Of a stretch of 64,000 bases of DNA, positions 14,201 to 47,600 are shown in pieces. This stretch comes from Lingula anatina (taxonomy: Eukaryota > Animalia > Brachiopoda). The DNA is taken from the NCBI GenBank assembly GCA_051362555.1, contig CM120640.1, positions 50,136,788-50,200,787 on the forward strand. The letters run 5' to 3'. The position numbers and the translations under genes were made by a program. The notes under the pieces are model-generated. The model had not been told where the DNA came from and did not search any database. It saw nothing but the letters and a program-made list of their open reading frames with translations. The first letter of the stretch is position 1. Each line of letters starts with the position of its first letter.

Positions 14201-17200
14201 TGTTGCTTGCCTTATGATACTTGCAGTACAACTCTTCATGTAATTGTTCACAAGAAATCCTGCATGCTGTGAATTTACCAACAGTTCTTGGGTATAGGTT
14301 TAGATATATTAGAATGGAAGAACTAACAATCATAACTGTAATGTAGGAAGTACAGTACCCTGTGTACTAATGTTACAGCAGGTTAACTGACAAGTTAACC
14401 TGAGTAGCAGTAAAGTTTAAGGAGAAAATAGATTTATCGATTATAGTTTTATTTATTCTCGACATTTAATATCCACTCCAAACAAATTTGTCATTTGATT
14501 AATATTTTTTGTTCCCACTTCAATATAAATCTAATTACCATTATAAGAGGATGGAGTATAACTTGTCTTCACATAGGTCCTTAAATTTTTGTCAGATTGT
14601 CCCCAGGATTAAGCTGTATGTCAAACTCCTGCTTTCCATTTACCTTCATTCTCCTCCAGTGGCAAACCTGACAAATGGACAAAACTGTTCCAGTTAAGGA
14701 TCATCCAAGACACTATAAAGCTTTCTTTTCAGATCCTTGTCCAAACAAGCCACCACCAACCCTGGAGTTTACCAGGAGAAAGAAGCCTGAGCGTAATGTT
14801 CCACTCAGCCCCACAGGTTATGTACAACCCCCCACCCCTAACTTCCCACCACCCTCACCCCACACTGCAGAGCTGGGCATACATGAAAAGATCAACCCAC
14901 AGGTTGGTGACCTGGTCTGAACTTTTCCAAATATGAAAACCAGTCAAGGTTTTTATAAAGTTAAATTTATGTTTGGATCATATGTACATTGTTTGTTAGT
15001 ATTAGAAAACTAATTATAACACACATAATGGGTATGGAAGAATGTTTTATGATGGTGAAGGAGAACCCTGTTTAAGGTTGCTGGGTAAAGGTTGCATCCT
15101 CCAATGGGATATATATTTAGACAGTAGGAAGTGGTAGGATGGATTGTGACCACATTTATCAACCGACCCCTGGTTCTTAATAGTTCATGCTCTTTATTAA
15201 TTAACCTTACTTTACTTTTTAAGATTCAATGATTTTTTTATCTCTCTGAATATCATGTTACTACATTTTCATTGCAGGAGAAACGCCAGTCTAGAGATAT
15301 CGAAACTATAACAGAACCAGCATATCTCCAGGCCCTGGGGGAGAGCAGCAGTTCTGCAGAAAATAGTGCTGGGGCCACTACAGAAGAGGAAAAGAGTCTT
15401 CCAGAAGTTACTGACAAACAGCCTAAAAGTGAAGCTGCATCAAAACTGACAGGAGAGAATAAACAGATAAAAGTTGACAATGTTCAATTAAGTGAAGACC
15501 AAGACAAAGATAAAACTGAAAGTGAGAAAAATATTTCTGAATCAGAGAAAGTTACAAGAACTCAGAGTGTTAAAGATGCTGGGGAAGAAAAAGAAAATTT
15601 ACGACCAGAAGATAATGCTGAGAATGTAACTGTGATCAGAAGGAAAAAGGAAACTTCCCCAGATATTGTCAAGGCAGATGCAAATAACCCCTTTTCAGGT
15701 ATGATTGATTTAACAGAATTTTCTTCTCTTTTTTGGTACATTTGATATTATTTTATTGATTATGGGTAAATATCAAGACTTCTTGATATTTATATCCATC
15801 TGAATTGAAGTCGACTTAAACTTTGAAGCAAATGTGCTCTTCAGAATGAATGCTGTAAATAATACCTCTTAGTAATGTCATTTTTGCAGTTTTGGCCAGG
15901 TTTAATTTTAGATGCAGTAAATATTTGTGAGTATAACAATAATTTAAAGAGCCATAATCATTACATTTAAAAGGTCATAACTTAAGGGATAATTTGTATT
16001 CATTATGAACTTCTTAAAAGAAATTAGTCTGCTCCTTAAATAGCTATTAACTATGAAGTCGTGTGTAGCATTATTTGATGGGTATGCTGTGGCATGCAAA
16101 TATCAAATTTATGACTCACTTGTCATAAATTTTGTTGCATGATGGACAGAATTCAAAAAGGATGGAAACATTCCAAGCAGACTTTGCTGTTCAATCATAA
16201 TAAGTTCTGTGTTTTTTTCTATACCCACAGTGGATCTGAAACAGAGTAAGTGAATTTTGGTGTTGTAATGTGGTTTGAGAAATGATTTATTTTGTTCAAT
16301 TTTTGTATGATTGACAAAATTTTGCTTCAATTGCCAGTGTGTTGTTTGAATGTTTTTGTTGTGATTGCATTAGCTGTGTGATGTCTGCTGTACTGCAGTG
16401 ACTAATATAACTCATGATTCAGCTAGAATTAAAATTAAATTGATTAAAGTTGATTGTCAGAATTGGATGTAACATCCACTAACATGGTAGATAATGTGAC
16501 TCCAGTAAATTTAGTCATGTGTTCTTCCGTCATACTTGTGGCAGTCAGTGGTAAGGGACAGGCCAACAGAGTTCATTCCTGAAGCTCAATATTTCAAGAT
16601 AATTGCATTCCAACACTTGAAGAAGTTAATTGTGAGTAAAAATGGATCAAGCATCATCTCTGTCAACATCCTCAAATCTGGCTGTTAAGGGTAAGGATTT
16701 TATTAAGTAATGATTTAATGGGAAAGGGTTTGATAATTTGTTTGTAATTTGACCTGGTTTAGGAATGCGCAATGTATTTTCTTCTAATTTAGTTTTTGTT
16801 AATGGACTAAAGTTGCTTTGAAAGATGATTTTAATCATTATTTTTACAGATAAAGACTTTGATGAAAGCAACAGGGTTGTTGTTATGCTAAAAATACACT
16901 GGAATAATCTGTTGGTCACTAGAAATATTTTCGAACTATAATTTTATGAAGATGATATTTTTGGAGAACAATTTGTGTGAAAGTTTAAAAAATAGATAAA
17001 GGAATGTTAGAAAACTACCACCATGAATGTCTGTAGATCAGAAAATGCACAGTTATAGGATATTTAACTGTCTAATCTAAAAATATCTGTATTGTTTCCC
17101 AGTGTTGCATGTATCATATGTGTTATCATCTGCAGCTGCTCACCTGTTGCCAGAGAACTCAATGACACTAAGTATAAAACTAGCTGAACCTCAGGCAACC

Positions 17201-23200: not shown

Positions 23201-26200
23201 ATAACAGTTGAATGGATATTGGCAAGGCTGGTGCAGAAGTGCACTGTACATGATAATAACTGTCTAAAGGGAAATTGGGAGAATTCCAGATTGGTACTTT
23301 TTGGATCAATATCTTGTTATATATAATTGAGATAAGTGCAGTAGGTACATGTACATGCATTGGTCTACAGGCAGTGGTTGTTTTACATGCTCTGAATGAA
23401 GTACTATTTAAGAGGACAGTTCTTTTGTGTAGAATTTTGAAGGTGAGTCTTTATACCATATTTGTAAGAATCTGGTGTGTACGGTGTTTGATTTTCCAAA
23501 AATTAAAAATAAATGTTGCAGTGATAACACACTTAATTCATGCAAAATTAGCTGTATTTCCACTTATTTGGATGATACATAGTAGTGTTTAGGCCAAAAG
23601 GTTTAAACAAGCAAAAAAAACAAAAAACAATATCTCTAGAAATTTTGATAATGAAGTGTTTGACATTTGTGAATTATTACCATATTTATAGTAAAAAAAG
23701 GCACATAGCAGAAATGTGTAATTTAGCCAGTCTCTCACAAAATTATTTTAGTTTCAATCGCCATATTTCATAAAGTGATTAAAATCGCCATCTCAACTGC
23801 ATTTTTTTAATTCAATCAAATCAAAAGATGATTAGCTAGTGCAGCTGCTAGCAAATTTAGCAATCAAAATTCACAATCTAATCACAGCCAAATGTAATTA
23901 CCTTAGACTAATTAATAGGGTTAGTCCTTGCTCCAGGTGGAGCACTATTTCACAATTATACCTTCATAATGTGTCAGTTTCAGCATATGTGAATAAACAT
24001 GAGGCAGGTGAGATCCCAAACAACATATCTATGCACAGGAAATTATATTTTCACAAGGAATTTACCATTAACCAAAATTGTTGATTTTGATAACTGCTCA
24101 TGTAAGAGTGTTGTTATTGTTCGACATTTTATCTTGTATTAGGATATTCCAGTGTGTCCTCAGCCTTAATCAGCATGCATGAAAGTGGCTAATCAATTCA
24201 TTTACCAATCACCTAGAGAAATTTTGGAACATTGATTGGCTGGTTACATGAGACAAAATCTAGTGTATTCCAAATTGGCAAGAAAGACCTGAAGGATAAA
24301 GTTGTAAATTTTAATATTGATCAACTATTTATGCTGTCTCTCTTTGACAGTGGTGTCTAGCTAGCTACCTAGCCAGCCAGTGCCAGAGTTAAAAGATGTA
24401 TGACACTGCATAAGGTGTGTGCCGTAGAAAGTTGAATGCTGGTTTGCATTAATGGATGTACAAGATCCTGTGGATACTTAATGAATGCTAAGTGTGTTCT
24501 GCTGGACCTTGACAAAGGGAGAGTGCAGGTTTGAGTCCTAAATGGCAGAGACATTTGCATTTCTTGCGACGATTTGGAAAGTTTTTAATTTTGCTGTCTT
24601 TCTTGGAGACTAGATCCTAGATGTGTGATTACTTGCTTAAGTATGCTGTGATGAATGTGGATATTATAAGATAGTCATGGAAATTATCCTCTGTGTCATC
24701 TCTGTCATGATTGATGTTTGTACGTCTATTTTAGATTATTGATTGACTTCCATCCTGGATATTACCATTCCAGGTCTAATCAGAGGCTCCATACCAGGAG
24801 GACAACGTAAGGTGGTATCCCAGATCTATGAAAATGTCTACATACAGCCAGGAGGACTGAGGAAGCCATCAAAAAGAAGATCGGCTCCAGGAAGTACGTA
24901 TCTTGCATATGAAGCACTGAAGAAGAAGGACTCTGAGAAATCAAAAGGAATGGGGGACTCCATAAGTGAGGAAAAAGAGGGAGAGAGGACAGCAGAAGAA
25001 GAACAGGAAGAAGATGAAAATTCCATTGATGAAACAGAAGAGTGGGCACAGGTGAGATAAAAGTCACACATAGAGCTTAAATGCTAAAAAATTTAACAAG
25101 TTTGTGATTAATTCAGTATTTTTATTTAACAAATTTTGGAGTATTTCTCTTTATCTAGTTACATTGATATAAAAAGAAAGATTGAATTACTGTAAAATTG
25201 AATAACATACTTCTTTAATATAAATTAATTCTCTGTATCACAGTCAAGAATTAGAATTAATTTGGTAACAGGTTCGTGTCTTATTTCATATATTTCAACC
25301 AATGTTATTAATGACAGTAATAAGTGAAAAGTGGTCTACATTTCTCCAAAGTTCCCATTCCCATGCATTATACAACTGTTGCAGACATTTTACTGGAAAT
25401 GTCTTGTCCAATTATCCCATACAGCTTTATTATTATTATCTCAAGTGGTTTGAGCTACACTGTTCAAATATGTGGCATAGGATATTGATTTTTGCTTACC
25501 AGCACATCTCTGCATTAAATAAGCTTCAAAATATCAACTTATAAACCTTCAGTGTATTGGAGTTTAGTATACCTTGTCCTATACTCAGAAACTGTGTTGT
25601 TGGTTCTCTGGCATTTTTTGAATTGGCATTCTAGATGCCCCCAAAATTGATTAAGTTGAAAATTAAGTTCATTGGGAAATACTGGAAATTGAAGAACAGA
25701 TGTTTGTATAGGATTGGTAAAAAATTAGCAAATACTCTAAATGTCATGACAAAATCATTTAAAACAAGTGGTTTGCATTTAAATTGCATTGTTACTAATG
25801 AAAACGGCGAAAACGGTCTGTTTGCTCCTGAAGGAGAACGAGATTGTTGTTTTCATCTCTTTTGTTTTTATTAGATTCTTATTTGTTCAGCAATAGGTCT
25901 GTGTAGCCCTGTGGTTAAGTGGATTGAAAAGCATGTAAATTCAGAGTATAAAAGTAAAACACATCAATGATAATAACATCTTTTTATAATTTTTTTTTTT
26001 TTATTTATAAATTGGAAAACTGTAGATTATAATGTGTAGAGAATTGGCGTTTGACTACTTGAATTAGTTGTAACTGTTGTCTGATATGTAACCAGCACTG
26101 TGTGTGTGAATACTAATTGTTTAATTGACTGGAGTTGATGCAGAGGAAGTCATAGATTCTGTTTTATTTGCAGATGAGCAGGAATGGCAGACGTGAATGT

Positions 26201-29200
26201 GGTAGAGGTGCATTCATCAATCTCTTCTCACTGCCTTATATCAGTATATCTATTTCTCTATACAGGTGCCTCAGCAGTGCTTGGCCTCAATGCAGCATGG
26301 TTGATATGGAAGACCTGGCTTTTACTGTCATGGCAAATAGATTGATATATTACTGTCATCTTTTTTGGTTCCCAGTTATTTCATATATGTATGTTTCTCT
26401 TGTTTGATACAATTGTAATGTTACAGATTGCAGATGTGCTAAAAAGCTATGGCGGCAAGCTCAGCATATCAGATGATGGGGACTGTGCTTTCTTCGAGTT
26501 TGACAATGAACTTGCTTCCCTCATGTCTCAGCAAGGTAGCTTTTTGTATGTGGTTAGAATAGTTCTAACCTCTTTTGATTTGTACATCTACTTGTAACTT
26601 CTACCCCATGGCTTACAATAAAGACATGGTCAGGGGATCCATAACGGTCTGCACTTTTGTCATTTGTTATTTTGAAATGGAAATCATAACGTTGTTTAGA
26701 TAAATGACTACTAACTAAAAAATTTTATATGATTTTTTTCATTGAATGAAATACATTGCCATTGGTACTTTGATAGTCTAAAAACTTAACAACAATAAAA
26801 AACTTAACATCTGTAAAATATAATATTTTACGGAAATGTTAGTGAAATCCAATTTTGCATCACTATTCAATAAACATTATTCAATAAGAAAATGTCAAGA
26901 GATACCTTAAAATTATTTTCTTTAATTCACCTTATAATGACTTTCTGTATAAGTGATTTCCATTTCATTAGGAAAGCATGTCTGATTCTGTATTATATAG
27001 CTTTGTTCTTCACCATGGATCTTTATCCTGCATGTTTCCTGCTTCTTTGCCTAGGACCACCTGCAGTAGAAGGTGACACCCCTAAAATCTTCTTGTAGCT
27101 GCTTCCTGCATGGTGGATGTTGTTTACTTATTTAGCATGGTTTATATTTGGCTTGATTTGTAGGGTGGTGTACCACTAGATCACCAAGCAGAACCTGGGA
27201 ACCGTAAGGAGTTCGGTGCTCATCTTTTTTAAAATTGTCACAAATTGTTATAAAGAGAAAAGAGCCTGGTAGCAACCTGGACTGTGCTTCCATGTATGTC
27301 ACATGGTATATGCATGACAGACAGACTTGTTGATTAATCCTCTGCTTTATGCCTAATCAGATTGCCAACATCATGGCTTCATTTGGAAGTGGCATCGCTC
27401 GGGAATCAGTATTCATACGAGACTTTGAAGCACAATTTGCACAGCTGCTGGCAGGTAACGCACATGATATGCAACAAAGGCCAAGGTTCACATTTGGTCC
27501 AATATATACACTTAGTTTATCACTAAACACAAACATCATTTTACATACACTCTCTCCCCACCTAGCACAAAATTGCTGTTATTTAAGATAATGAGATATA
27601 CACTGTAGACACCAAACATTGCTGTAATGTATTTGTGGAGATTTATAAAGTTAATTAATAGTTTGTCAATTCAAATCTAATAACAGTTAAGTAAAGGTTG
27701 ATATCACTTGTACATTTATACATTAACAAAGATCTGTACTGAAAAGGTGTCATTCCAAAGTGTATTTGCTTCTATATTGTTGCTATTAAACAATATAAGG
27801 CGGCTGGGAATGCTATAACTTCATCATATAATATGGTCTGCCAATGCTTTCAGAAGTCATCACACATATTCTCTCAAAGTATAAGTGGAGCAAATTTCCT
27901 TAAAAGAAAACAAGAAAATAGGATCCTTTATTAAAGTATTCAGTTCATTAATTTGTTCCTTTTTAATTTTTAAATGTGAGTAATGGTATGCTGGGTTATA
28001 GATTGTGTTAGAGAATTTTGCAGTAGCAGTCAATTGAGTTATCTTAAACTTCCTTCTTTCTTCAATTTTTGATGTTGTTATTTTTCTACTGAATTTCTTA
28101 TCTATATGGTGTTGTACATCTTTTTTAATTTATTCTACTAATTTTTTCTCTTGATTTATCTGAAATCATAAGTTCTATTTCCGCTGTAGCTGAGCAGAAG
28201 ATTCAAAGCGTAGGTGACTGGTTACAGGACATGGGACTAGGGCAGTATGAAAATACAATGGTGGCCAATGGTTTTGATGATATGGATTTTTTGGTAAGAA
28301 AACTTTATGTTGACCACTTCATGGTAAAGGGGTCATTTTTGTATTGTGATTTTGGTATGCAATGTTTAAAAGATTTTGATTTCTTTTGTAGAATTTCCAG
28401 ATCTCACAGGAGGCTTATAATGGCAGCAGTTGATACTGAATTTTGACTGTAATGGCCAGGATGTAAAAAATGATCAATTAAAAAATGTGGGATTTCAAAA
28501 TTTTGAATACATGTATGAAGCAAAAGAAGATTTGAAAGCATGATCACAATCTTCTTCATGGATATTCCATGACAATAATTACCTATACCCTGCAAATAAA
28601 AGTAACGCAGCATTATGTTCTCATTTTATTTCTGATAAATAGATATGGAATAAACAAAGATGGTTTTACTTACATGTTAATGAATTTTGTCATTTCTAAA
28701 ATATCTTTTGTTAAAATCAATTTTTTATTTTTGTTATGAAAAAATATTATTAACCAACAAAAAGAAATTAATTTTTTTAAATATTTTTATTGTGTTTTAC
28801 TAGGGTGGCACAATTATTGAGGACCAGGACCTTATTGAGATTGGGATCACCAACCAAGAACACAGAGATAGAATTGTAGAAGCAGCTAAAACTTTAACTC
28901 CAATCCGACCTATAGGTAACACTGAGCTTTTTGGTACAAGCATATAGTCACTTCAAAATATGGTTAATGGATACATGTAATTACAATGGTCTTCTGCCAA
29001 AGAGAGATTCTAGTATTGATTGAGACTTCACTTGTTATTCAGACTTTCATATTAAAGAAATGTTTTATTGTTGAGGAAAGATTCCTGTATAGGTAAAGCT
29101 ACTTTTAAATCTTTGATTTGAAGGCAGCAAAAAATTGCCCTTATCAGTGGAAGAATGGTTGTCATCCTTACGGCTTCAAGAGTATACTGAAACATTCCTG

Positions 29201-30630
29201 AATAATGGGTTCACAAGCATGGACAGAGTGCGGAAGATATGGGTATTAGAATTAGATACGGTAGGTGAAACATCACCTGTTTAGTGAAGAAGCTTTGTAT
29301 GTGTTATTGATCAGAAACAATATTGTGGTAAATATGCCAAAAATGGTTTTAATTTGGTGCCAAAAAAATGTGAAATGGTGAAAATTCATTATTTTAAAAA
29401 GAAAACTGTTCATAAATTTTTTTTTCATTTGGTAAAATTTATCACCCCAATGCTTCACTTTCTGCATTTTTTCTTCAGGTACTTGGTATTACCACTCTAG
29501 GACACAGGAAAAGAATTCTAGCATCTCTTGGAGAACGGCCAGAGGAAGAAAAAATCATATCGGATGATTCAGTGAGTTAAATGTGTATAACACAAGCTAT
29601 GAAACTTTGAAATAGCTGATACCACTTATTTTAGGGAAACAAGAAGCATTTTTTACCAAACTTGTGATATATGTTTGATAAGAATGTTATACCTTTTAAT
29701 TTTGGACAGTTTGACATTCTTATGGAGCTAAATGACGTAATTGTGTTAGTTGAGAAATGGGTAACAATTGTTATGCATTGAACTAATCAGCAAAATAAAA
29801 TTAATATTTTCACATTGTTTTTGTAGTTATTTTCCCTAAATAACCTTAGTGTATTTTTATATTATAATTAAAAACCAAGCTGTCTCAATTTTACAGAAAT
29901 GGAATCTCAGTCCATTAACAGGAGACAAGACTTCCATCCCAGATGAGTACCTGACCACAAAACAAGCCACAGATATTAACCTTTATAAAGACTACACAAG
30001 TGTGAAACCTAATTATCAGGGCCAACACTTTGAACCAGAATCAACAGAGCACATTCCACTGAATCCAAATAAGAAGGACACGACAGAAGGGTCTGATCCG
30101 GTAAAGACTGTCATAAAGACACACTGTTGGCATTTTCTAGAGTTTGTTAAAGATGCTGTCTTCCTTCATGTTAACATTAAGCAGTATTTTAATATATCTA
30201 TATTAATCTTCAAGAATCAAAGCAAAATTCAAATGCAGACATTTGTATTGAGTTTTGTTTTGGTTGACTGTTTTTTAATTACAGGTGTTTTCAAATCATA
30301 CTTGAGAATATTGATAGGTTTGTGTGCACAACTTCAATTGGGATCTTTGTGTTATTCAGTATCTTGTAATTAATTGTAAGTCAGTTAGTTCTTTGATTGA
30401 TGGCATATGCAACTGTAAGGATTGCCATTTCATCATCATTCTAGTTTTGAGTTTGATACATGTATCTCTTGAACACAGCAGGTTGGATTAAGAGATGATG
30501 CTATCAACATCCGCCCCCCACACCTTGCTCACACACAGAGTCCAGTGAAGAAGTGGCGACATAGGCCTGAGGTGCTCATTAAGGGATGTTGCAATTATAC
30601 AGCTCAGGTACACAGAAGACCCGTGTGTGA

Positions 30631-30665
<35 letters not shown>

Positions 30666-33600
30666 TGTGTGCATGGGTGTGTATTATGTGCCTTAATATG
30701 TATTTATGTAGTTGTTTGTTGGAGTTGGGAAAGTGTTTTACTTTGATTTATGACCACTTGGATTCATTCAGGAGACCATGTATGACAAAATTGTTTTTGT
30801 ATTGAAACATAACTATGTTGAAAATTATTCTAAATTTAATCACATTATTCTTGCTTTTACAGTACCTTGGTTCATGTCTTGTTAAAGATCTTCAAGGAAT
30901 AGACTCAACAAAAGAAGGGATTTTAAAAATGAAAGTAAGTATGAGAAATACATACCAAATTTCCAAAAGCCACTTAAGGGCATACATAAGACATGAAGCT
31001 GGAACTTAAATCCAGGTGGCTGATTACTTAGTAAAATGAAAATATGTTGCCATCTGATGTAGAGCACGGAGTCATGGTTTCTGAAAGCAAGAAGATATCT
31101 CCTCTGTCCCATGTTTGCATGATGTCAGGCAATGTAAGGTTTGGCAGGATGGTTCAAGTGTCAGTTTGGAAATTAATCTGTGTTGGTGATGGTGTGATAT
31201 ATTGTTCAATTCAAGAGACCATGATATTATAAGAGTTGCTAATGATAATGAATGCCTTGAGCTGAAGTTCTTGCATCAAGAAGCATGGAATAGACCTGTG
31301 CAAACCCCACCAGAGTTGTATGCTGAGGTTGCACACTACAGGCTTTTATCTGAACAGAATCATTTTTTAGATGGCATGAGGTGTGCTCTCTCCCTCCTTT
31401 CAAAACGTAATTGAAACTAATTGTCAAGTGTTAGGTAGCATCAGTTTCAAGATATGCTATATGTTAAACAACTGCTTTAGTAATATTTATTAAATTGGGG
31501 AATTGCTCTTACTTGTTTTTTGTTAATCAGCTTCTTTACACATTTAAAACCAACAGCCCTTGTTACATCAACTATCATAGAAAGTAAGTAGTTGTATATC
31601 TGGCAAAAAGAATTTGAGAACACAAAAACTTTGAATGAATTGTAACTTACTAATAAACTTGATTGATCCACATCTGAGCTGTGATAATTGGATGTTATAT
31701 GAATGTTTTCTTAATTAATTTCTGTAAATCATTTCAAATTATTTATTTAGATATATTTTGGAATGAACTGTTTTTAATCTCTTTAATCTCTCTCCATTGC
31801 ATTACCAAAATTATTTTGAATTTTAAGAAAATGGAATATATATGAATATGTGCATTTCAGTTTTATGCTTGGCATGCTTTCTTAGTACAGTTACATCTCT
31901 GCTACCTAAGTGCTATTACCGATTTGTATTGCATTATGTCATTTTATTTAAGATTTAGTACACAGCAATTTAGATGAGATGTTTACTTTGCATGCAAAAT
32001 GTAATATATATTTATGGTTGATTGAAAATGGCAACATGAGTATAGAATGGCTGCATAAGAAAGTTTGATAGCTGCTCTCAGCAGCAAAGAAACGCTTCGA
32101 AAACGCATTTCGGGGAACACTTTATTGCGTTTCGATAATCGATTTTCATGTTTGTTCGTAAGGTTAACACGAAGTTAGCTACGCACTGACCTTAAAACCT
32201 GTGTGACTTTGCTTTAACACAAATTAAGTCACTTGTAAACTACAGGAAAATCACAGGTGATTTATTTCAAATGTCACATAAAAAACATTAGTGTGCGCTA
32301 ACTTTGACCAATACAATAAAAATTGCCATTGAAAGAGAATCAAGACACTCTTATATGTTTAAACAGACACGCTTAGCTTGACTTAGTGTGAAAAAAGGAT
32401 AATATTTGCCAGAGGTCTCCCTTTTCAACTTGAATATTTGTATTTATCAGGTGTATTTAATAACAGTGAAAGGCTGCATGCTGACTGGTTGAGTGAACAA
32501 AATGAGGCGTATCAGTCCGTTCCAGCAGACTGCCCTGGATGCAACCTAACACGGCTTATTCATGCAGAACATTGAGTTTAATAATCTGTAAAACGATAGA
32601 GTTTGGCTCAATTGACTGTCTGGGAGTGAAATACAAACACTTATGCTGTATTGTTTATTTCCATTTTTTTATCAAACACATTTCATCCCCCAGTGCACAA
32701 GAAGTGTGAGTGTGTGTATAATCTTAGACAGTCTTGGGTAATATATGTCTGGAATTCTACTAGGGTATATGTAGGAATGTGGTGTTGACACGGTACCTGA
32801 TTTCCTATTTAATTGCATGTGTGAATTCATGATGCATTCACAGAAAAGCGTGTAGTTTAGACCCTGCGCAGTCGTGTGTCTGGTGCACGGCGCATGTCTG
32901 TGCCCCCTCCTGACCCCCCCCAGGTACAGAGATTTCAGACCAAAATAATTTAGTTTATTTTTTCAAAAGTCTGATCTTTATCAAATATCCTGGGGATGTG
33001 AAAGCACTATTTCAATATGATAGAAGTGATTGGCATGAGTGGATAGATAGTCAAGTAGTATTCTGCTACATGAGTGTTATGTTTCACTTGACGCTTGATG
33101 GAAAAGCAGTAAAGTGGAAAATTTGTGTGCAGCTCACCATGACTGTAGAATCAACGGACTGCATACGCTCAAATAAAGACGCATTCGTTAACAACTGCAT
33201 ACTGTACAGTATACAGACGGTAGTCGGTATTCGAGCACCAGACATTTGTAGACATTATGAAGCACTGCGCATTGCATGGATCGCTGTTGAAATGTTCTAA
33301 GAGAACGTTGGTCTTTGTTACTATTGACAGAATGAATGGAACAACAGTGATTGAAAGGTGTTGCTGATCTGGTGAGCTCGACTGAAAATTATTGCGTGTC
33401 TGTGGCATCGATGTCAGACGAGGTGTGGGATTTTAACGCTTGCGAAGTCATTTTGTGAGGAGTCAAAATGGTTGATAGTCGACTTGTTTTAACTTACTTT
33501 TCAGGTATATTGTCAAGTCAGTCTGTAAGGTTAGGCTGCACAAAGTCTTTAAGGTTAGGTATCAAGATTTCATGGTTTCTGTTCAGTAATATAAGAAATA

Positions 33601-35611
33601 TGATACGAAGCTTTTGTTTAACAGACAAAGAAGTGAAAGCTAGTGGTTGGTCATATTGCAGTAAGGTTCTAGGATGATTACATGGTAATGTTTCTTTTTT
33701 TCCAGAAATCAACAGACTCCATAGCTAAAGTGCCAACCATACAATTATCCATATCCTATAAGGGAGTGAAGTTCATTGATGCCAAGTCCAGGGTATGTGA
33801 TCATTGCACAGCTGTTAAAAAGAATTGCCATTTTAGAATATACAAACATTTTCCAAGATATATTATGAAGTGAACAAGGATCTTGTATTTAAAAATCATG
33901 ATTTTCAGTGGGATTCACAAGTTACCCTAATCGTCTATAAAAATTGGTTTTATGAACATATAAATTTAAATATGATAAATATTAAATGCTCAGCATCACT
34001 AAATAATAGAATATTAGGATATTTGTGCACCTGTTACACCACACATTAAGCACAACGAGACAGCTAAATAATTAATTATCCTAATTAAATGTTCTGTACA
34101 AATTAGTAGAAACTATCAAAGCAGAACAAGTTAATCTTGATAGTTTAAGCATTTAACTAGGAGGTAGTTATATTGTTGAAACATTTTCTTTTTTTTCCCC
34201 TATTTTTTGGAACTCCATTCATAATTGACTTAAATCTAAATTAGTATTTTTACACAGCCCCCTTTCATAATTTTGTTGCACTTCTTGTAATTTTTCTATG
34301 ATTTTTTAAAAATCCTAATGATTGTCAAGTCAAGTCACAGAATCGGGGTTTGTTAGGTTTTAATAATGGTTTATGCTTTTACAGATAAAATGAAAACCAT
34401 TTTACTTTTTGTGTTCAAACTTTCAAAACTGATAAATATTGATAAAATACAGGTCTAGTTCGAAAATAAGCCTGATGGGACCATTTTTTTCCAAAAGTTA
34501 TGCAATATTTTTTTTTCTTTTTATGTACAGACACAGATGTGTCTGTACATATAGCCATTACCTGCATCTGTTTAAAAAATTAGAGAAAATGCAGGCTTTG
34601 ACTTTTCAGATATTGAATTTTATTACAGTTCAATTAGATCAAGGAAGTCCTTAATTAGATCAGATGTTACCCTGAGCTCCACATCTGATGCATCCCCATT
34701 TAAAAATCCCAGTATGTGTATGCCAATACTTTGACCCGCATCCAATCACTAACACCACATAACTCTCTGGATTTGGTAGTTCTGACGAAGGGCGTGATGT
34801 AGTTTTCAGACCCTCGATTGGTGTGGTAATCTTCAGTCACCTTAAGCTGAAATACAGTTATGACAAGCAGGCAGGTTTGAAATTAAAAATAAATAATAAT
34901 AATAATCTGGTCCACAACTGCTCTGAATCTGGGTCTAGCTAAAGGTAAACACTTCTGTGAAAAATTTTCAATTTAATTTAACTATGTAGCTGTAAACTAG
35001 TTATCAGTTTTAAGGTTTCTGTTAGGCCCTATCATAAAAGTTTCAGGGATTGTGGTGCACATATTTTAACTAATAGTAAACATGTTATTAATGTAAGACG
35101 ACCAGTATAAGATGTCCCCACAAATGACTCAAACTTAACAAATTTTCCTTGGGTAAACAGTATTTTTTTCTGACTAACCAACCTTTGGTCCAGCTTTTCT
35201 GACACTCACCATAATGATAAAAATCTGGAAAAATTAAAGTACCCTTAACCCATGGAGGGTATCAAGAGGTGGTAGATTTTTTTCCAATATTAATTCATGG
35301 CATTTACCTGCTGAAAATGATCAAAAAGTATTTCCCGCACTCAGATATGTCCAGCAAAAAGTGGTTAATGTACTTAATCTGTGTTTAAAATCTGTAAATT
35401 TGGCTCTTTAAGCATTAATCCTTAACTTTTGCAAGAAAACATGTCCAATGTCAAGATATCTATTTTGATTACCGTTTATTTATTTAGATAAATAGTTATT
35501 TAGATATTGTACCAGTACCACAAACAGTAACCGCACCATTTGGGGATTATGTTAACAATTGACCTTAAACACATAATATAGAGTGGAATAATACTAAAAT
35601 TACTAAGTAGT

Positions 35612-35665
<54 letters not shown>

Positions 35666-38600
35666 AATATACTGCCAACCTGAGCAATATATGCCAGAAA
35701 ACCTCAAGCCTCGTGTGAGGGTGGAAGTGTACTACTATTTTAAGAGGGAAAAATACTCACATTTCACCAAAAACACCCCTAAAACTGAATATATCATGTA
35801 CACTTACTTAACATCTCTAAGGAAGTATATCTGCACGTCCATGATACTGAATATCAACATTAGGACATGGGCATCAAAATTTCAACATGGTGCCGATCTT
35901 GTGAGCACGCTTTTCGCTTAGAATATGTATAGTATTTTGGAAAATGTAAGATTAAACACATACCCAAATTATCAGGAAGGGGTACACCTAACTTCACAGG
36001 GTTGGGAAAGAATGCTGCGATCCTGAACTGGCGGTTAAACAGAGGTGACATGAAGTCGTTTCTTGTGCACAAGCGTTCCACTTAGAATATGTATCGTATT
36101 TTGCTTTGTATTCATAAATTTTGTAAATGTAAAATTAAACGCATATAAAAATTATCAGTGAAGAGTACACTTAACTTCATAGAGTTGGGAAAGCATGCTG
36201 TGTGATCCTGAATCAGCAGTTAAACAGCGATGACATAAAATCATTTTTTGTGAATTACACACTAAAAAGTGGGTACTGGATATAGCTAATTTAATTAGTC
36301 TCATTTAATATTCATGTGACCAGGTCATTACATTATCAGTGGAAATCTCCACTATTTACACTAAGTGTCTGTGTCTAATCTGAATTGGGAAAAGAAACTA
36401 AATGTAACTGTAACTAATTAATTAGCATAGAGTCATGGTTTCTCTTTGTAAAAACAAAAAAGGCTTCATTTTTGTCTTCATATGTTACAGTGTCTGCAGT
36501 GGCCAAGAATTAACATTGCTTCATTTGTCTCTGTAGGTGAATGGATTCTAAAATTAATATCCCATATATTTTACCTCTTAAAAGATTATGACAAAGAACA
36601 CACTTAAAAAAGAAAAACAATAGACTAACTTTGAATGTCAGAACAGATTTATTGGTCATTGGTAAGCATGGGAAGATCATCACTTACCCCAGGAAATTCC
36701 TTTTTAAGGCACTTTTCTCACCAAATTGAAGTTTTTATCCCTTAAACTACTTGTATCTCATTAAGAACTTGTGGCGTATGACTGCCTAAAGTTAGCTTAA
36801 ACCAAGTTTGCCACATTAGCAAACATGGTATAATTTGTGACTTTTATGAGAGCAGTTGATTATTCTCTTTATTTCAGAAAGTAATTTGCGAACATGAAGT
36901 GAGCAACATCTTCTGTGCCTGTCAGGATGCAGACAACCTCAACTATTTTGCCTACATCACCAAGGACCTTCAGGCGGGGAAACACTACTGTCATGTCTTC
37001 AGTGTGGGAAGTACCGTATGTATACACAGCTTGATAAAGCTGCCATTTTTCTTATACAATTGCTTGATATTAGATAAATGTTATTTGAAAAAACAGATGT
37101 TAAAGATTACTGTAACATTGGTTTTATGTTTAAAGATGCATTGCGGTTATATGGCTAATACAAAGACTGTAAAATGAGCCAAATAGAGAGTCACGGTATA
37201 CTTATTGTGATTTTACAGAAATATGTCGTAGAAGTATTGATGTTAAATATTTTGAAAGAAGTTCTTATATATTGTTCATAATTGTTGTTAGATTGTTTAT
37301 GTTAAGTAATGTGTTTTAGTGATAATGATCATATCACTTACTTTGGAACATTAATATGTCCACAAGTCACTGGAAGTTGGTCAATCACAGGTCAACCAAA
37401 TTCCAACAACTTGTAGGCATTCAAACTGATGATGTTCTTGTGGCAAGAGTGAAAGTTAGCTGTTTGGTTAACTTTTTTGTTCTAAAATAAGTTATTACAG
37501 GGATGAAATATTTTCATCTATTGGCAGATTTCCCACTTTTGGGAGCCAAAAATATCATAAGGCCCCTGGACCCCACGATATATTTTCCAACTTTTTAGCT
37601 AAATGGCATTTTCATCCTTGTTATCATTATCACTTAAAAACCTCTCTGAAATTTAATAAATATAGTTTTCATTTGTTCATCTTTTATAACAACACAGCTA
37701 AATGATGCAGACATACTGCCATTATACAGGATATTCTCAGAGTCTTTGTACACACAAGTCAGAAACCTGTATTAAAGATGTGTAGAGACCTTTTGAATAC
37801 CCTGTATATTAGCATTGGGTACAGTTACACCAGAAAGTGTTGGTCAGGTTGGATTACAGCAAAGTATATATCAGTTTATTTCTTTAGGCTATGATATGGA
37901 AGAAAACCTGAGACTGAGGTGGATGTTTAACTGGTACCAGGTTGATGCAGATAGTTCTCACAGATATATGCTTTCCAGAATTCATCAGATTTTGCTGGCA
38001 GCCAGATTCTGAGATTCTAGATCATTTTCTTATTACAGATTTCATTGTTGTCTAACAGGTTTCATTTTTCATGTTTCATTTGGAAAGTCAGTAGCATGTG
38101 TGCTTGAATGTTCCAGTGATGTCACAGTGAACTTCTCTGAAAGGCACTGTGAATCCCAGCAACTGACTCTTTGTTGAACTTGTGAAATGTACTTGTAGGT
38201 TGAAATTAAACAAAATGTTGAATTAAGGAAACACAGTTAATACTCATTTTAAAAAAATGCTCCACTGAATTATCAAGCCTTACAGATTAGCGAGTATAGG
38301 TATTAATTGTAAAGTAGTTCCTAATGTTTTTGTCCACAGCTAGTCATGCCAAAGATGACCAGTAGTACCTACAATGCCTTTTTTATGATGTTGGTGAAGA
38401 TTTATGGGAGAGGGGGGGGGGTCACGTTGGAGCCACCAACCTATGATTACTATATGTTCAGTTGCCAGTATTGAGTATAAGCATTACTTACTACTACCCT
38501 GCTATTTTCTTGAACTAGTATACTGAACATTGAGATGAATGACGGTATAACTGGTTTTACCAATTCACTTCACCTTTTCCCTAACAAGAAAAATAAATAC

Positions 38601-41600
38601 ATAAATGTAAGTTGAAATGCTAAGCTACAAAAAATTAATCTTTTTCAATCTATTTGGTTTTGGAGATCAAATAAGTCTGGTTTCTATTGAATGATTTTAT
38701 TGACTGATCACAGACAAGCTGTACTGCTAAGACCTAAACCATTATCAACTAAATGTTGTATCACACTGAGAGAACAAATCTGGGAGCTCAGACCATTAAC
38801 CCTCCTGTGATAGATTTTCTGTTTCCATAAAGTCTTTGTAAAAATTGCACTTATATTTTTTCTGTCAATTTATAGATTCGCTGATACCTTTCCTCAGTAG
38901 AAGAAATGGATTTCTCTGAAAATCCATCAAAAGAACCTTTTCCAAGTCGTATATAAAAGTTCTGGCAATCTAGCAATTTCACCTATATAACCTTATATAT
39001 GCATGCTTAAATAGCAGTCGTTTTGTATTTGAATTATATCAGTTTTATATCAATTTCCCCATAATTTTCTTAGTTTGAATATTCCTTATAACAGAGTATG
39101 CCCGACTCTGCTGTCAGACACCTCACTGCTTTATAACCACAATACCCAGCTCAATGTATTCACTATACAACTCTGTACACATTTTAGGTCAAGACAGCTG
39201 CTGGTGAATACATATCTCCATGGTCATAGCAATGTTGGGAGTATAGTCTTTAACTTCCTTTTTTTTTTCTTTTGTGTGTCATTTTTCTTTTTTGTTCTTT
39301 TCTCTTTTAAGGTTTTTCCACCTCTGTATTATCTACACTTTCTACTGTGTTGCTGTACCTATCCATCCAGAATACCAGCAGATCTCACACCATTTCTGCC
39401 CTGTCTGTATATGTTGCTTTGTTCACTAAGATAATTATTCCTTTCCACCATTGTTCAGTTTAGATAGATACTAGCTATTCGTCAATTGATTACACAAAAG
39501 AATCAATATTTATCCTCTATTTAAACGTATTTCCTTGGCATGTCTTAATTTGTAAATTTCCCCATTCAAGAGAATTCTGTCGATGTCTTTGAACTTCCAC
39601 CTTGACTTTGCTGTCTTATAAAGTGCTTTTATATTTAACAATCTTTCTTAATTATCAGGTGACAACTGTTCTAAAACATTAATTGTATGTACTCAGAAAA
39701 TACTTAGAAATTTTTCATAGAAAGTCAAAAGCTGAAAATGAACACTTTTTGTGGCTCTGTAGTATTTATCTGTACCTGTCCTGTTAGACCATATGTACTG
39801 TGATCAGCCTGTTGAGATGACAATTAAAACATGGAAATAATGTGAACTTGCCTATAAATAAAGAATATTTTTGTGCCCAAAGTGCAGATAAAAAAAGGAA
39901 AAGGTTAAGGAAAAATTTAGGTCAGCTGAGGTGAACCAACATGTGAATAAAATACCTTCAGCATCTTTTAACAAGTCTGTATTAATGTAAACCAGTGTCA
40001 GACTTGATCAAATAATTATGTAAGGTTCAGTAACTTGTGAAAACAGTCAGGAAGGACTTGTTTTGGCCTATCACCAAAACCCTTTTATAATGCAGACATA
40101 TTTTATGCATTATTTCATTGGTAGGTTTCTTAGTCAATTTAAAGGATGCATCGATCGCAATGTTGGTGCAAAAACAGTAAATGCCCTTGGCAATTTTTTG
40201 TGGTGCATTTCACAAATGATGCAACTCACTCAAGTGTTTCGTTAATTCCTTAATTGTTCCCTATGTGTTTGACTTCAGTTTGCAGCTTGCTGTTGAAATG
40301 TGAAGATCAGAGGCTCTATTGTAGCTAATAGGATGAGCAGATAGAGAGATGTTATCAGTTTGACAATGGGTTTAATGTGGATTTCCACCTTGCCTCGAAA
40401 AAAATTTAATCGACTTTGTTACTTGGAACAAATTTATGTTTCACATTTGAAAAAATCGAATTCGAATTATTCGAGATTTCCAGTCTTCATTTCGATGCGG
40501 TAAGTTGCTTATAAAATTTTTAAGATGTTGAAAATATCTCTTATGCAAGGTGACTCGATTAATAATCTGGATGCTAGTGTTCCTTATGTCCCTACAAGCA
40601 TGCGTCAAAACAATTTGTCAGCTTGGATCAAGTGTGGCGGCCATCTTTAAAACGATGGCGCTAGTGTTCTTGCATGGCCGTCTGGGTCACGCTTAGTGCC
40701 ACGTCAAGTAAGTGCATTAGCATATGCCAGACGCGGGTCAAATAGTTGATTGAAAGGTTATGGATTTAATCTAAGGCGGCTTGCTTTAATGTATGATCGT
40801 TTCAAATTTTTGTCCAATCAGATAGCTTTTTCTATTTTTCTTGTCACGGTGTCAGAAGCTCCCTGTTGACTTAAGCCTGTGCAATAGAAAGTGTGGATCT
40901 GTACTATTTATTCAGAAAGGACATGTTCTTTATTAATCATTGCGTTAAGAAAGCCTTTTTTCGCTGCAGGAGATCGTATATGAAGAAATCAGATCACCGT
41001 ATTTTAAGGAAATTATTGCGATGGACAATAGCATTTTATTTGCCTTTTTGAGCTTGTCATATCACTGCCGTCACTTTTACCAGTCAGATCTTTGTCTCTC
41101 TAATCCTTCATAATTGAGTGATTGAGACATCTATAAATATTGTACTGTCCAGGGCAGATGGGGTCATGTCAATTGACGACACATGTCAATATGGCCGTTT
41201 TAATCTCAATGTTTATGGAAGCCTTTAGTACACCATTGCAAGATCAAAAGCAATGGGCGTCAATGTGAGGTGCGGTACCATGGTCATTCAGAAAAATTAA
41301 ATAACAGGTCAGATTAAGGGCAGCTAGTACAGATTAAGTCGCCTATTTCTTTTACTTGGGTCACATCCGCTGAGGGGCGCTCTTGTCGCATCATCACTGT
41401 TCATAGCGATCGATCTTGCATCAAATTTAGAAAAACTTTAGATAGCAATAAAGCAAATTTTATTTTAGTCTAACCATATGGGAATAGGGATTTGTCAGAG
41501 TACATCTCAGGATTATGATTGAGGAGTGATTGTGTATGAGGTTAAAAAAGTACTCCAGGGCAGATTTGGGTGTTCATTAGAGCAGTAAGGGGCGGATTAA

Positions 41601-44600
41601 CTCACCAGAAGGGAAGGGTTCTTCAGGCCCAGTGCAAATAAAAATTATGTGCATTGTACCAGTGCTAAATGTCTGTCAGGTTCAGGAAATTGTTTTTGTG
41701 AGGTAGCGAGTATTTTTTTTCCACAAAACGACGATAGCGCGGACTGATCGATCGCAGTAGAGTTTAATTGGTCATTACAGAAGGGTTCAAATATAATGAA
41801 ATATTAGGTCTCCAATTTGAACTAAGTTGTTATTGATGGTTAAACCATTTGAAGAATTTGGGCCAGATCATTGGAAAAAAAAATGTCAGACCAATGGGCT
41901 CATCCAGTAGCCATTTTGTATGTCCGCCATCTTGGCTCTACTGGGGTCTTGAGCTAGTGATTGGTTAGGTAATCTGAGCGGTCAGGGGGTCAGCTTCACA
42001 ATAAGTGTAATTTGTGCATGTGAAATGAAAACAGAACTGTGTTTATATCACACTTGATCTTGAATCTTTCCCTAACAAAAGACTGGTGTATGATGCATTT
42101 TTATGAAAGATTTACACAAATATTTGCTTTTGCTGTTGAGGCTAGTAGGTTTTTGTGGAATGGAAGAATCTTTACTTTACTTCCCATCTATTGAGAAAAA
42201 ATGCAATGTCAGCTTGGAGGTCATAGATTTTTTCTTATAGGATTTTGGAAAAATTCCTAAATAAAATATGTCACAATGATCTCATTGTGTGCAATTTGCT
42301 ATTTGTAACTGTCGTATCTTGAAGAATATTCAGTATATCATATTATCTTGTTAATTCCACGTTTAAGATTATCCCATTTTTTTTAAAACGTAACTTTCAT
42401 AGTTTGTTTAGAAATGACAAATTTAAGAAAAAATAATCACGTTCTTTCATATTATACAACTAGGTCAGTGTTTGCAAAATTGGCCTCGAGCTGAAAAATA
42501 CCAGGTTCGTTGGCCGTTAAGTCTCATTGTCTTAGAAAATTCCACAAGATGGCGATGTGAATAGGTGGAGGTCAAGAGTGAAACATGGTCCACATCAAAG
42601 TCTTCAGTTAAAAGCCGCATTGTTAGTCACCATCTTTTTTTTTTCCACATTTCAACTAAATAACCTTTCAAAAATGGAGTTCATCTAGTTGAAGTACCCA
42701 GTATGTAGAACATGCATTCATCCTGTTGTAATCACGCTAACAAGAAAGATGCTTAAAGCGTGCAGCTTGCCTGAGCATTACAAATTTGTACGCTTACAGT
42801 TTTAATTTTGTTAGGGTGGTATATTCAACATCTGTTGATGTTAGTGTTAAGGAAATGTCGCATCAGATCATAAGCCTCAGTGGACATGGGACATGGCTTG
42901 TACCAATTGACATTACAGTACAGGATGCACTTACAACATTGCACACAAGAGTCTGCAGTCCCTGCAGGGGGAGATTATAGGGGGTCCTCAATGGCTGACA
43001 CATGACCCTCACTCTCTTCAAATAACTCAATATCAACTTGTTTTGTTCAGTGAAAACCTTTTGGCAATTTTTTTATACTTTCGCACTCACCCTTGTATAG
43101 TCCACTTTGCTAGAATTATTTGTGTCCGTGATCAAGATCTGGTCTACCTGTTAGATAATTTTATTTGATTTTTAATTAATTTAGGGAAGTATGGCTTGTT
43201 ACTGTTAAATTTTTATGAAGTATTTTAAGATGTAAAGTAGTGAAAGGAAAATTAAGAAGAAGAAGAACCTGAACGTTCCATGATTCCATGCAGTTATCAT
43301 ATACATGAAACTTCTTAGTCTTGTAAGATTGCCAATAATAACATTATGATTCATATATTTAGAGTGCTTCCTACCTAAACTACGAGTATATACTATGTAG
43401 AAATAATCTGACTGGTCTGGTGGTCAGTCTAATCCCTGTCTGGACAATTAATCCTCTGTTTGTTGTGATCATTGTGGTTCATTGATTTCTAGAGTACTAA
43501 GTGAGCCAATAAGGTAATGGGATTGTGGTGGGTCATCCATTGGCTATTACACTTAGGGACAGCTTAAATGGTGGACCAGAGCATGGACAGTACTTGTAGT
43601 AATGAAAAAATCTCCAGGTATATAACAGCTTTAAACTGAGGAGATTACTTCGGTTAAAGAGATCTCATTCAAGTACTTCAGAGACCACTGCCTGGCTGGA
43701 TGCCCATGTGAACCAGGTGCTCTAGTGCTAGAAAATATTACTTGAAGATAAATAGATCCTTTTCAGTTGATATAATAAATATGTAGAAGAAATAGCTTTT
43801 GGTAGATATTATTTTAATTTTTAAGTTTTTATTGTAACTTTAAATCAAATAGCAGGGGGAAGGAAAAAAGTAGCAAAACAAAAGAAAAAACATGCAGATG
43901 TTTATATGAACAAGATGGTTTAACATGAATGGACTCAACTATATCTTGTATGTTGTTTATCTTTTCACATGCGTAAACTTCAGCAAAAGCAGGGCCTCTC
44001 CACAATGAGTGTCAGTGTCACTTGTCCCCTAGCTGTGTGGGGGTCTAGCAGTGGCATGGAGGTGCTTGCAATTTGTTCTCAGAATAAAAACCCTCATCAA
44101 AATGTTCACTGAACTTTGCATCTGCTCCTTTATCGACACCTTTCTCTTCCCTGGACAACAGAAGGAATTCTAATTTCTCATTGCCTTTTTGATTGTAGAT
44201 TGAATTTGTTTAACCCTTGTTCAGCTCCTGTTGGCCTGGGGCAGTGGTTGTTTTAAAAAAGAGAGGTGCCCAGGTATTTTCTGTGTGTTACCAAGCTCGT
44301 TTAATTGAGTAATGTCACTAGGTCTCCTGTCCATTGAGACACAGGATTTGGTGTGTGTTGAAACCTTGGTTTTTTAGGTTCAGTACCATAACAATAATAT
44401 TTGAGGTTCTTTGCTTGATATTTGTAGAGTTCAACCACAGAATTGTATTTTATGTGTGCTTGGGCAGTGATCCAGGAAAGTTGTTTATTCTTCATAAAAG
44501 TATTTTAAATGCTGACAGAAAAGAAGTGTGAAATGTGGGTATTTGAGGTGGAGAGTGCTGTATTTGTCAACACTGACTGGGTACTACTGTATCTTTATTA

Positions 44601-47600
44601 AGATCAGTAAGTAGCTTACCAGTAGTATACAGTATTGGTATATTTTGAATTTTCATCCAAGAGAAATCTGCTAAACATTACTGTGCATTTTCCAATTTTT
44701 TTTTTTTTTTTTTCAAAATTGAAAAAAAAGTACAATGATAATAATCAAGTACTTCCCTTAAATTTATTGGGTAAAAAAGACAATGCAAAGAAATGAAAAT
44801 TGCATGCATCTGACTTTTGTGAGATGTAATTTTCATCTTTAGTGCATTTTTCACCGCCGTGCTGGCGCATGTTCACGTGACTACCGTGCAAAGACATACA
44901 ATTAAATATAATGACGTACAAGCTGCATAGGATCAGGGGTCATCAGTGCTGCTGCATCCTTGCATATTTAATCTGCGCTTGCCAGATTGACAGTTAAATT
45001 GTCAGTTAATCCTCTTGGTTTACCAAGTCTCAGTGAGGATTTTTCTTAATAGTACCTGATTTTTGTTCTGATCAGATAAAAGGGGTCTTCATTAAGTAGT
45101 GCCGCTGGCATGAACTCTACGACAATAAATCTTGTAATGAAATTTTCTCAATTTTTTACCGAATAACCCAGATAATCTCACTAAGGCACTTAAAACGAAC
45201 AATTAACATACTTTAATTTTTATGTGTAATGCATGCCAGCTGTCAAGCCTTGATCATCCTTTTTTAAAAAACACTACAGCACATATTATCACTGTGATGC
45301 ACATTTTTATTTCACAATTGCTGATATTTGCCAGAAATGTTAAAGACTTCAGTAGCAGAGTAATGTTGAAGGAATAAAATGGTAAATTTATTTTTTTTTC
45401 CATTTTTTATTTTATTTGTTTATTTATTTATTTTTTATTTTATTATTATTATTATTTTTTATTATTATTATTATTTTTTTTTATTTTATTTTTTTTTTTG
45501 CAAAATTTCTGCTCAAATGATTTAATAGGTAAAATGTAAATTATTTTTTCCACTTGTTGAAAAACAGCTCAAAATGTGTCAATTAAAACAGAGTTAATGA
45601 TTAAATTGTATGCCATGGTGTATGTTCAGACATATCCCTGAAATGAAAAAAATGTACTTAATTAGCAAATGTCCCTTTAAAATTGTTTTTGTTGCAAGCA
45701 GTGAGTGAGTGGTGTCCATATTGCTTGTCCCCATGATGTGATTAAGCCAGCTATTACAGCCAACAGCATGGTTGCATGAATAGCACCAATTGCTGAATAT
45801 TCTTTGCAGCAAATTGTATGAATAAACAAGTTATGGATCAATAATTGTATGAATGCTTCAACCTGCGCAACCTATTTACTGTTCTTGCAGGTCTTTGCCG
45901 CATTGCCTGATGTCTATTGTTGACTTCAAAGTTCAGAGAAATGAATGTCATCACCCAAGGAAATTATACCACATTCTGGCATAACACATTGCAGTTATGT
46001 TTCAAGAAATAATTGATGACAACCTTTAAATCAAACTGTCCTCAGGTTCCCTCGGGTTGTTTAATAATGTACAGTAATTGCAAGATTGAAGTGTTACAAT
46101 TAGTTGTATTTCTGTTAATAATTTTGTTGTCGTTCCATCACTTCGTTGATATTTTCATGGTGGGTGAATTCTTCTAATAGCAGGTGCAGGTCATTGGGTA
46201 AACTCATGTCACATGACCCTCAATTATTGAATCAAGCCTACATAGCCATGCTTGAGTGGATGGCATCGTGAAACTTAGTATTGATCTTTGTGTACTGGTT
46301 AAAAGTGAACCATGTCAAGCATGAATTTTCCCTTTAACATGAGCAACACATCAATGAAAAAAGTACAATTGAAATTCTTTGCAGTGATAGTGTCAAGCTA
46401 AACATATTTGTAGAAGCTTACGAAACATGGAAGGGAGTTGACTCCATCTTTCATTAAGCCATGAATAGCAACGAGAATGTGCTTCTGCATTTAATTGAAA
46501 CCAGTGAAACATCAAAGTCGCAGATTTATGTTGTTTTTTTATCTAATTGAACACTTTTTATTTGGCTTCTTTCCTGTCAGCACTTTGGGAAAAGAAAAGA
46601 TCTTTTTTCTCATCACCTGGAATAAATAGATGTAATTAAGAGAAAGCTTTGCTTGAGAAAATGACTCAAATGGTAGTCCTGGGGCTATTTGGTCAACCAA
46701 CACACACCCCTAAGATGTGGCAGGGCAGCTCCATTGTGTAAGCCTCCTGATGCCTACCCCTGTGACTGCAGCACAGAGGTGGAGACCCAAGGGTCAGTGA
46801 GAACTAATATTTGCTGATAGCTGAACAAGGCCTGTTTACAGTGCTGTGTATACTGTCCCATCTTTGGCTGTCACACATGGATAGCACGTCTATTGTCTTG
46901 GGCTCAATCTCTTGGGGCAGTTTACTTTGATGGGTGCAAACTTTTACGGTGTGTGGTATCTTGGGGGTGGGGACTGAGACCGGTAATGTAGAAACATTGA
47001 CATCATCTTTTCTCTGATGATTTCAAGTTCAGAAGAAAGGGTATTGGTTCCCTCACCTCTGTGTTGACTGTTTGACTGGGGGGTGCTCAATGTTAATGAC
47101 ATTACTGCTGATTGGTATTTCAGTAATGAAAAAAGTGATTGGTTGGCTGGTTTGAAATGTGAATGTGAGTTTTAGCTCATTTACTGTAACCAATGGAAAT
47201 TTTTCCTTTTGTCAATATTTTATGTAACCAATGAAAAACTTTGTCTGTGTCGATTTGTCTGCTCCTCTACAGGAAAATGCTGACCCAAGAATATTATTTC
47301 AGAGAAGGCCCCTTCATTATTCTGTTTTATGTTTTGAAACTCACTTAACAAATTAATGGATACCTTGCCCCTATTCTTTCCTTTAATTTATTTCTATGAT
47401 AGATCTGAAATCTGGAGGGCAAGTAGGCTAAAGTGCCCTGGAACTCAAAATTAACTGTAGCTCATTAATCTCTTTCTTTACATTGCATACTAATTGACTA
47501 AGGTGTTGTCAATTCATTCTGGGCTAGCACCCTTTTACAAATATGTGTTATTAATGGTAAATGTATTTTGTTAAAACATTCTATTATTCAAAACCAGTCT

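Follow-up and report, generated by a model that had tools for sequence, protein, structure and literature searches.

Mutually exclusive exons upstream of the first SAM domain of ANKS1 in Lingula anatina, a pair of likely lophotrochozoan-stem origin

The ANKS1 locus and its alternative exons

The window (the whole stretch of 64,000 nucleotides of Lingula anatina DNA that was analysed) carries ANKS1, the ANK-SAM-SAM-PTB scaffold of this brachiopod. The exons for residue 216 onward map from 2206 to 50018 on the + strand, and the peptide of the SAM2 exon (29123-29260) is 100% identical to an L. anatina RefSeq protein, ANKS1B isoform X2 by name. Pfam assigns ankyrin repeats, a pair of SAM domains and a PTB domain to the encoded protein. 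Structure matches were found to the SAM tandem and the PTB domain of AIDA-1 (PDB 2kiv, 8ym2), and the Foldseek matches of the protein were to SAM and PTB only. A tree of the SAM-PTB core (33 rows) agrees with the species tree and places 22 lophotrochozoan rows on a 98/92 branch. By domain content and by orthology the gene thus belongs to the ANKS1 family. The last intron of the gene (37016-49892, ~12.9 kb) contains a T-rich tandem array at 45386-45499. The region in front of SAM1 is organised as follows:

24774..25051, + strand: constitutive upstream exon, ending in ...EEWAQ, phase 0, donor CAG/GTGAGA; read depth and junctions in all runs, present in RefSeq isoforms
26174..26207, + strand: exon C, 34 nt, phase 0 to 1, non-homologous; in RefSeq isoform X5 only (P0005)
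26427..26535, + strand: exon A, 109 nt, ACAG/ATT ... AAG/GTAGCT, the derived duplicate, lacking the RES motif; RefSeq isoforms X1, X2 and X4
26536..27360, + strand: A-B intron, 825 nt, GT-AG, ordinary donors
26976..27316, + strand: GCATG cluster 5' of exon B, five GCATG of which three are TGCATG; candidate RBFOX sites
27361..27454, + strand: exon B, 94 nt, TCAG/ATT ... CAG/GTAACG, of the ancestral type and with the R-E-S-V-F motif; RefSeq isoform X3
28190..28293, + strand: constitutive downstream exon, start of SAM1, phase 1; junctions in RNA reads, Pfam SAM, PDB 2kiv and 5zry

Exons A and B have the same phases and are both 1 mod 3 in length (109 and 94 nt). In the frame table, either exon alone leaves the reading frame open through into SAM1, and inclusion of both or of neither leads to a stop. 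An earlier sequence-only reading of this DNA had described A and B as a duplicated pair with exactly this frame behaviour. Its coordinates, lengths and phases agree with the splice sites in the window and the 825-nt intron between the exons, and its frame claim with the stops in the frame table. It was right about A and B and missed exon C, the third exon, used in RefSeq isoform X5. When exon C is the sole exon included, the frame is kept, with the phases of A and B, and the whole motif is lost. The combinations C+A, C+B and C+A+B each run into a stop, hence exon C does not rescue co-inclusion and is not the frame-restoring exon that the sequence-only reading had named as a threat to mutual exclusion. 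Across 8 RNA runs no junction of exon C was listed, and it is probably a rare or noisy exon.

Junction reads were counted in 8 of 9 raw RNA runs of the same species, using 6-30% of each run; a junction was listed only at ≥ 3 reads from 2 starts, and rarer products may escape. All four junctions that the sequence-only reading had singled out for counting were present. Summed over the 8 runs, 22 reads lead into exon A (25051>26427) and 19 out of it (26535>28190, plus 2 carrying one changed letter), while 46 lead into exon B (25051>27361) and 84 out of it (27454>28190). This gives totals of 41 reads for A and 130 for B (171 overall); a lack of reads including exon A, which would have spoken against the pair, was not encountered. 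None of the 8 runs yielded a listed A>B or skipping junction at the 3-read threshold. Each exon is therefore joined to both neighbours, bridging the other, and no A-to-B reads were listed, a join that would in any case shift the frame; this agrees with the junction criteria for mutually exclusive exons as taken from the available text of PMC5740500. Mutual exclusion, claimed before from the frame, is in this way supported by single-inclusion junctions.

The ratio of the two exons differed between samples. Junction reads for A/B were 0/53 in run X1, 0/31 in run X2, 3/0 in run X4, 1/0 in run X5, 0/4 in run X6, 9/23 in run X7, 11/10 in run X8 and 17/9 in run X9, exon A thus making up the majority in two runs of study P3. 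The difference between runs X1+X2 (0 A, 84 B) and X7-X9 (37 A, 42 B) gave a Fisher p-value of 8e-15, but it lies between studies: reads of study P3 depart from the window sequence at many positions, so that population differences may account for part of such ratios. Within study P3, run X7 (9/23) differs from run X9 (17/9) with p 0.008; for all these read-based p-values, reads are not independent samples and the tissues of the runs are not labelled. That A and B are spliced between the same flanks in a sample-dependent ratio, with other combinations breaking the frame, and that the pair is annotated in brachiopod, molluscs and nemertean (see below), we regard as practically certain.

Further variation was seen at the locus. 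Reads of runs X1 and X2 carry an A>G change at window position 27408 in exon B, which falls on the third position of the codon for the RES serine and is silent. A 15-nt microexon (16231-16245, + strand, ACAG/.../GTAAGT) lies between the exons ending at 15698 and starting at 24774; it is present in RefSeq isoforms X1-3 and X5 and skipped in X4. In run X9, which is also the run richest in exon A, 7 inclusion reads stand against 16 direct junctions, and inclusion was not listed in other runs. A conserved motif, P-F-x-G-L-x-R/K-G, is split by the microexon; isoforms of Lineus and of Ostrea may or may not carry an insert at this position. A tandem acceptor at 30478-30483 (+ strand) puts one glutamine in or out and sets RefSeq isoforms X1 and X2 apart; loose read ends at 30100 and 30102 are compatible with both forms.

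The segment exchanged before SAM1

Homologues were surveyed in sets of 76 and 37 sequences and in 20 isoform clusters with up to 15 members listed for each cluster, and all counts given are among the members listed. The types are distinguished by the R-E-S-hydrophobic-aromatic motif of B (RES), which is present in 15/15 B rows and 10/10 invertebrate outgroup rows and in 0/18 A rows; vertebrate rows also do not have it. All 39 B-type rows agree in G, R, E, S and an F further on. B segments are on average 51% identical to one another and A segments 40%, compared with 25% for A against B within one species, and the A segment ranges in length from 25 to 47 residues. A first helix (W-x-x-I...) is common to A and B and is also found in cnidarian and vertebrate rows, there without RES. 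The W of this helix is encoded by the constitutive upstream exon 24774..25051, not by A or B.

Modelled with AlphaFold2, the B and A isoforms of Haliotis each have two helices before SAM1, with a pLDDT of 63-70 versus 90+ for SAM; the RES stretch of the B isoform is under 50. The swapped segment is accordingly modelled as a motif in a predicted disordered linker, outside the SAM fold. The single, probably helical element next to SAM1 that had been proposed before is consequently recovered as helical in both isoforms, though the models give two helices apart from each other, predicted with moderate confidence, which lie in a disordered linker and not in SAM1. Likewise, the proposed match of exon B to a vertebrate motif holds for the helix, which vertebrates do have; this helix is common to A, its W lies upstream, and RES is absent there.

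Vertebrate ANKS1A (Odin) and ANKS1B (AIDA-1) share with Lingula the ANK-SAM-SAM-PTB order and the W-x-x-I helix before SAM1. They differ in having one segment, without RES or second helix, and a duplicated pair was not seen in them. An S-P-S-F stretch directly precedes the same helix in vertebrate rows, and this presumably holds Ser-663. Three vertebrate-like rows have an isoform break at the same W-x-x/I boundary. Phosphorylation of Anks1a at Ser-647/663, residues that bind 14-3-3, controls where the protein localises at the ER and its role there, according to the available text of PMC5027278. The short isoforms AIDA-1C/D are without ankyrin repeats (PMC6684583, text as available). In short ANKS1B isoforms of the eel group (P0250, P0252-P0254) another N-terminus is joined just before SAM1 and replaces the pre-SAM helix, which is a parallel route to removing the pre-SAM element.

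No Pfam family, solved structure or known partner of the pre-SAM element was found in the searches made. A PDB sequence search with exon B and an Rfam search returned 0 hits each, an atlas search with the segment came back blank, and the accessible parts of PMC10252437 and PMC4699217 contain nothing on this segment. A talin/paxillin-type LD motif was considered for the first helix and found no support in the literature searched.

In the mechanism proposed here, the choice between A and B swaps the predicted two-helix linker element before SAM1. The RES serine stands in a basic-x-S-hydrophobic context and is a candidate phosphorylation or contact site. On balance we lean towards the element being a short binding motif which becomes folded on contact with a partner, with the RES serine as a phosphorylation or contact site that A isoforms would escape. 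The partner might instead be the protein's own ankyrin repeats, clamped in an autoinhibited state, with exon choice setting whether phosphorylation can release them. This is unlikely, because the motif persists in models without listed ankyrin families (P0020, P0036, P0234, P0237), which are possibly partial or short isoforms. A model of the complex between the ANK domain (1-283) and the B segment (976-1024), computed without alignment, scored 0.00, an outcome that speaks neither for nor against contact.

Control of the choice between A and B

As far as the available texts of PMC5740500 and PMC4165533 describe them, known homologous mutually exclusive exons are, like A and B, adjacent, of the same phase and similar length and included singly, with non-3n lengths such that errors shift the frame. 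According to the same text of PMC5740500, 60% of human mutually exclusive exon clusters are non-3n, and frame-based nonsense-mediated decay clears errors in 14/19 non-3n clusters of C. elegans in that of PMC4165533. Leaky transcripts with A+B or with both skipped would probably be cleared by nonsense-mediated decay in Lingula as well.

The A-B intron with its 825 nt, GT-AG ends and ordinary donors differs from the arrangements that exclude by steric hindrance (< 50 nt from donor to branch point) or by mixed U2-U12 sites; steric block and U12 incompatibility are therefore unlikely. Exclusion by competing pre-mRNA pairings, as with the docking site and selectors of Dscam, in place of protein factors and decay, would fit the finding that an A>B junction was not listed even in runs using both exons, but decay alone would hide this junction. 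Moreover, the inverted repeats found in the three introns are AT-rich and of small size, with a complementarity of ≤ 84%, and in a docking/selector search of the exon flanks against 30-nt tiles the best duplexes reached -19 to -25 kcal/mol (raw), were bulged and had no shared docking site. We consider such pairing improbable.

Protein factors and decay remain the preferred explanation, and one cluster of candidate sites was found. The A-B intron contains 5 GCATG versus 1.0 expected, a number reached by 0.9% of 825-nt windows (post hoc comparison). The five sit 45-385 nt upstream of exon B, and the three TGCATG among them are the only ones on the + strand between 24182 and 30669. RBFOX bound upstream of an exon usually represses that exon, so the cluster would favour A. 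It is conceivable, and we propose it tentatively, that tissue splicing factors pick the exon and that an RBFOX-type protein on the GCAUG cluster represses B and favours A. The pairs egl-15 5B/5A and unc-32 7a/7b of C. elegans are RBFOX-regulated, with UGCAUG in the introns flanking the pair (PMC4165533, available text). The Lingula pair resembles them in having UGCAUG elements in a flanking intron, here as candidate sites recognised from sequence alone.

Homology, distribution and age of the pair

The global alignment score of the A and B peptides was reached by 3 of 10000 shuffles, the local score, less clear than the global one, by 124 of 10000, and the DNA score by 29 of 3000. A profile of the A family matches the profile of the B family with a probability of 95.3% (E 2.2e-8). 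When 2977 six-frame segments were searched with an A profile built without Lingula, exon A ranked first (E 3.3e-6) and exon B second (E 0.077); the B profile matches exon B at E 1.6e-20. A third homologous copy was found neither among 44 candidate in-frame exons of the three introns nor by six-frame profile search. The exons thus have the frame, the similar length and the sequence homology of homologous mutually exclusive exons, a class to which the myosin heavy chain clusters belong. A and B differ from other members in being only 25% identical within a species. A further difference is that 87% of human mutually exclusive exon regions with structures are embedded in secondary structure (PMC5740500, available text), while A and B encode a motif in a predicted disordered linker.

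Both types are annotated in 13 of the 15 lophotrochozoan species with at least two isoforms among the members listed, namely Lingula, Liolophura, Pomacea, Biomphalaria glabrata, Physella, Haliotis, Ostrea, Saccostrea, Argopecten, Mytilus trossulus, Dreissena, Mya and the nemertean Lineus. Isoforms of these species always diverge directly after W-x-x. Only B was seen in Gigantopelta and Bradybaena (3/3 isoforms each, members listed). In all 13 species A scores higher against the A of other species than against their B, and B the reverse. These distinct types and the profile match bear out the old duplication that the sequence-only reading had suggested, and exon A, which it had allowed might prove disrupted or absent in relatives, is annotated throughout the 13.

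For the annelid Owenia one model of B type was present, and both types in one annelid species were not seen among the sequences listed. In the SAM-PTB tree, A-type rows group with Owenia (two rows, 91/89) and with Octopus (one row, 100/100), so annelids and cephalopods probably have A too. A hypothetical Pinctada model (P0033, residues 1154-1221; 1 of 361 proteins) contains A and then B in tandem with extra residues between them. It is likely a gene-model join and has the order A then B in a bivalve, as in Lingula. In the chiton, a third alternative of different, unrelated sequence is used at this boundary; like exon C, it is read as noise.

Outside Lophotrochozoa, 86 arthropod, echinoderm and amphioxus sequences (10 sets, members listed) were inspected; 8 are without SAM1 and the other 78 are all of B type. 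In the segment tree 18 A rows and a long-branch cnidarian fall on one side of a 98/95 branch and 26 B and outgroup rows on the other, the tree resting on 36 columns with an unsettled bootstrap. The duplication could predate Lophotrochozoa and go back to the bilaterian ancestor, with A lost or unannotated in arthropods and deuterostomes. For this speak several arthropod-clade rows without RES whose start resembles A (two score A 18.0 / B 17.5 and A 12.9 / B 5.8), the cnidarian row without RES among the A rows, and an outgroup comparison based on protein annotation and not on introns. RES is absent in vertebrate, cnidarian and some arthropod-clade rows, hence it is dispensable in some lineages, and its presence does not fix the age of the duplication. 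Against the greater age stand the uniform B type of the 78 segments and the scores of the RES-less arthropod-clade rows on the A profile, ≤ 18.0 versus ≥ 23.7 for lophotrochozoan A rows; we hold it for rather improbable.

Exon A could be a leftover that is tolerated because it keeps the frame, doing nothing that B does not do. It is more variable than B in sequence and length, the A row of the cephalopod clade is short and degenerate, and two gastropods are annotated with B only. We nevertheless consider this reading very unlikely: annotation in 13 species of three phyla shows exon A undamaged and in the right phase, its consensus differs from that of B, and it accounts for 41/171 junction reads, with the majority in two runs of study P3.

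A and B thus likely go back to one ancient tandem duplication on the lophotrochozoan stem, as judged from comparison of the sequences. The brachiopod and mollusc lineages were already distinct by the early Cambrian; a pair common to both is therefore more than 500 million years old. The overall reading, that A and B are a mutually exclusive pair, likely from a tandem duplication on the lophotrochozoan stem, and that using B or A likely switches a conserved R-E-S motif, regulatory or for binding, on or off respectively, is given a probability of about 80%.

The mutually exclusive exon mechanism is a well-known class; this pair is expressed, sample-variable and ancient. No description of the A/B event or of the motif was found in the literature searched, most subscription papers being beyond its reach, and ANKS1 was not found in the available main text and 10 supplement files of PMC5740500. 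Splicing databases such as MetazExp may include the event. The former statement that no exclusive splicing is described at this site therefore stands for this literature but not for annotation, as the automated RefSeq annotation already models A isoforms (X1, X2, X4) and a B isoform (X3).

The pair is a phylum-spanning mark of Lophotrochozoa which targets a linear motif in a disordered linker and not a folded domain. It exposes a conserved, little-studied element of ANKS1, and the two natural variants make this element directly testable. ANKS1B deletions lead to a neurodevelopmental syndrome (PMC6684583, available text). One might speculate, with considerable doubt, that for more than 500 million years A and B have formed an on/off switch for a phosphorylatable motif of a regulatory ANKS1 helix, controlled by RBFOX-type factors and probably in a neural setting. 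If true, the helix, which lies near the regulatory serines of human ANKS1A and is lost by alternative starts in short ANKS1B, would be an unrecognised control element of the family, and A versus B a natural probe pair for finding its partner.

A second optional element was seen in the PTB domain, where chiton, Lineus and Ostrea isoforms (P0088, P0106, P0115) have a basic insert of 6-8 residues at the position of the Lingula intron 30936-33706. No convincing microexon matching this mollusc/nemertean insert was found in the Lingula intron, which contains 10 GCATG.
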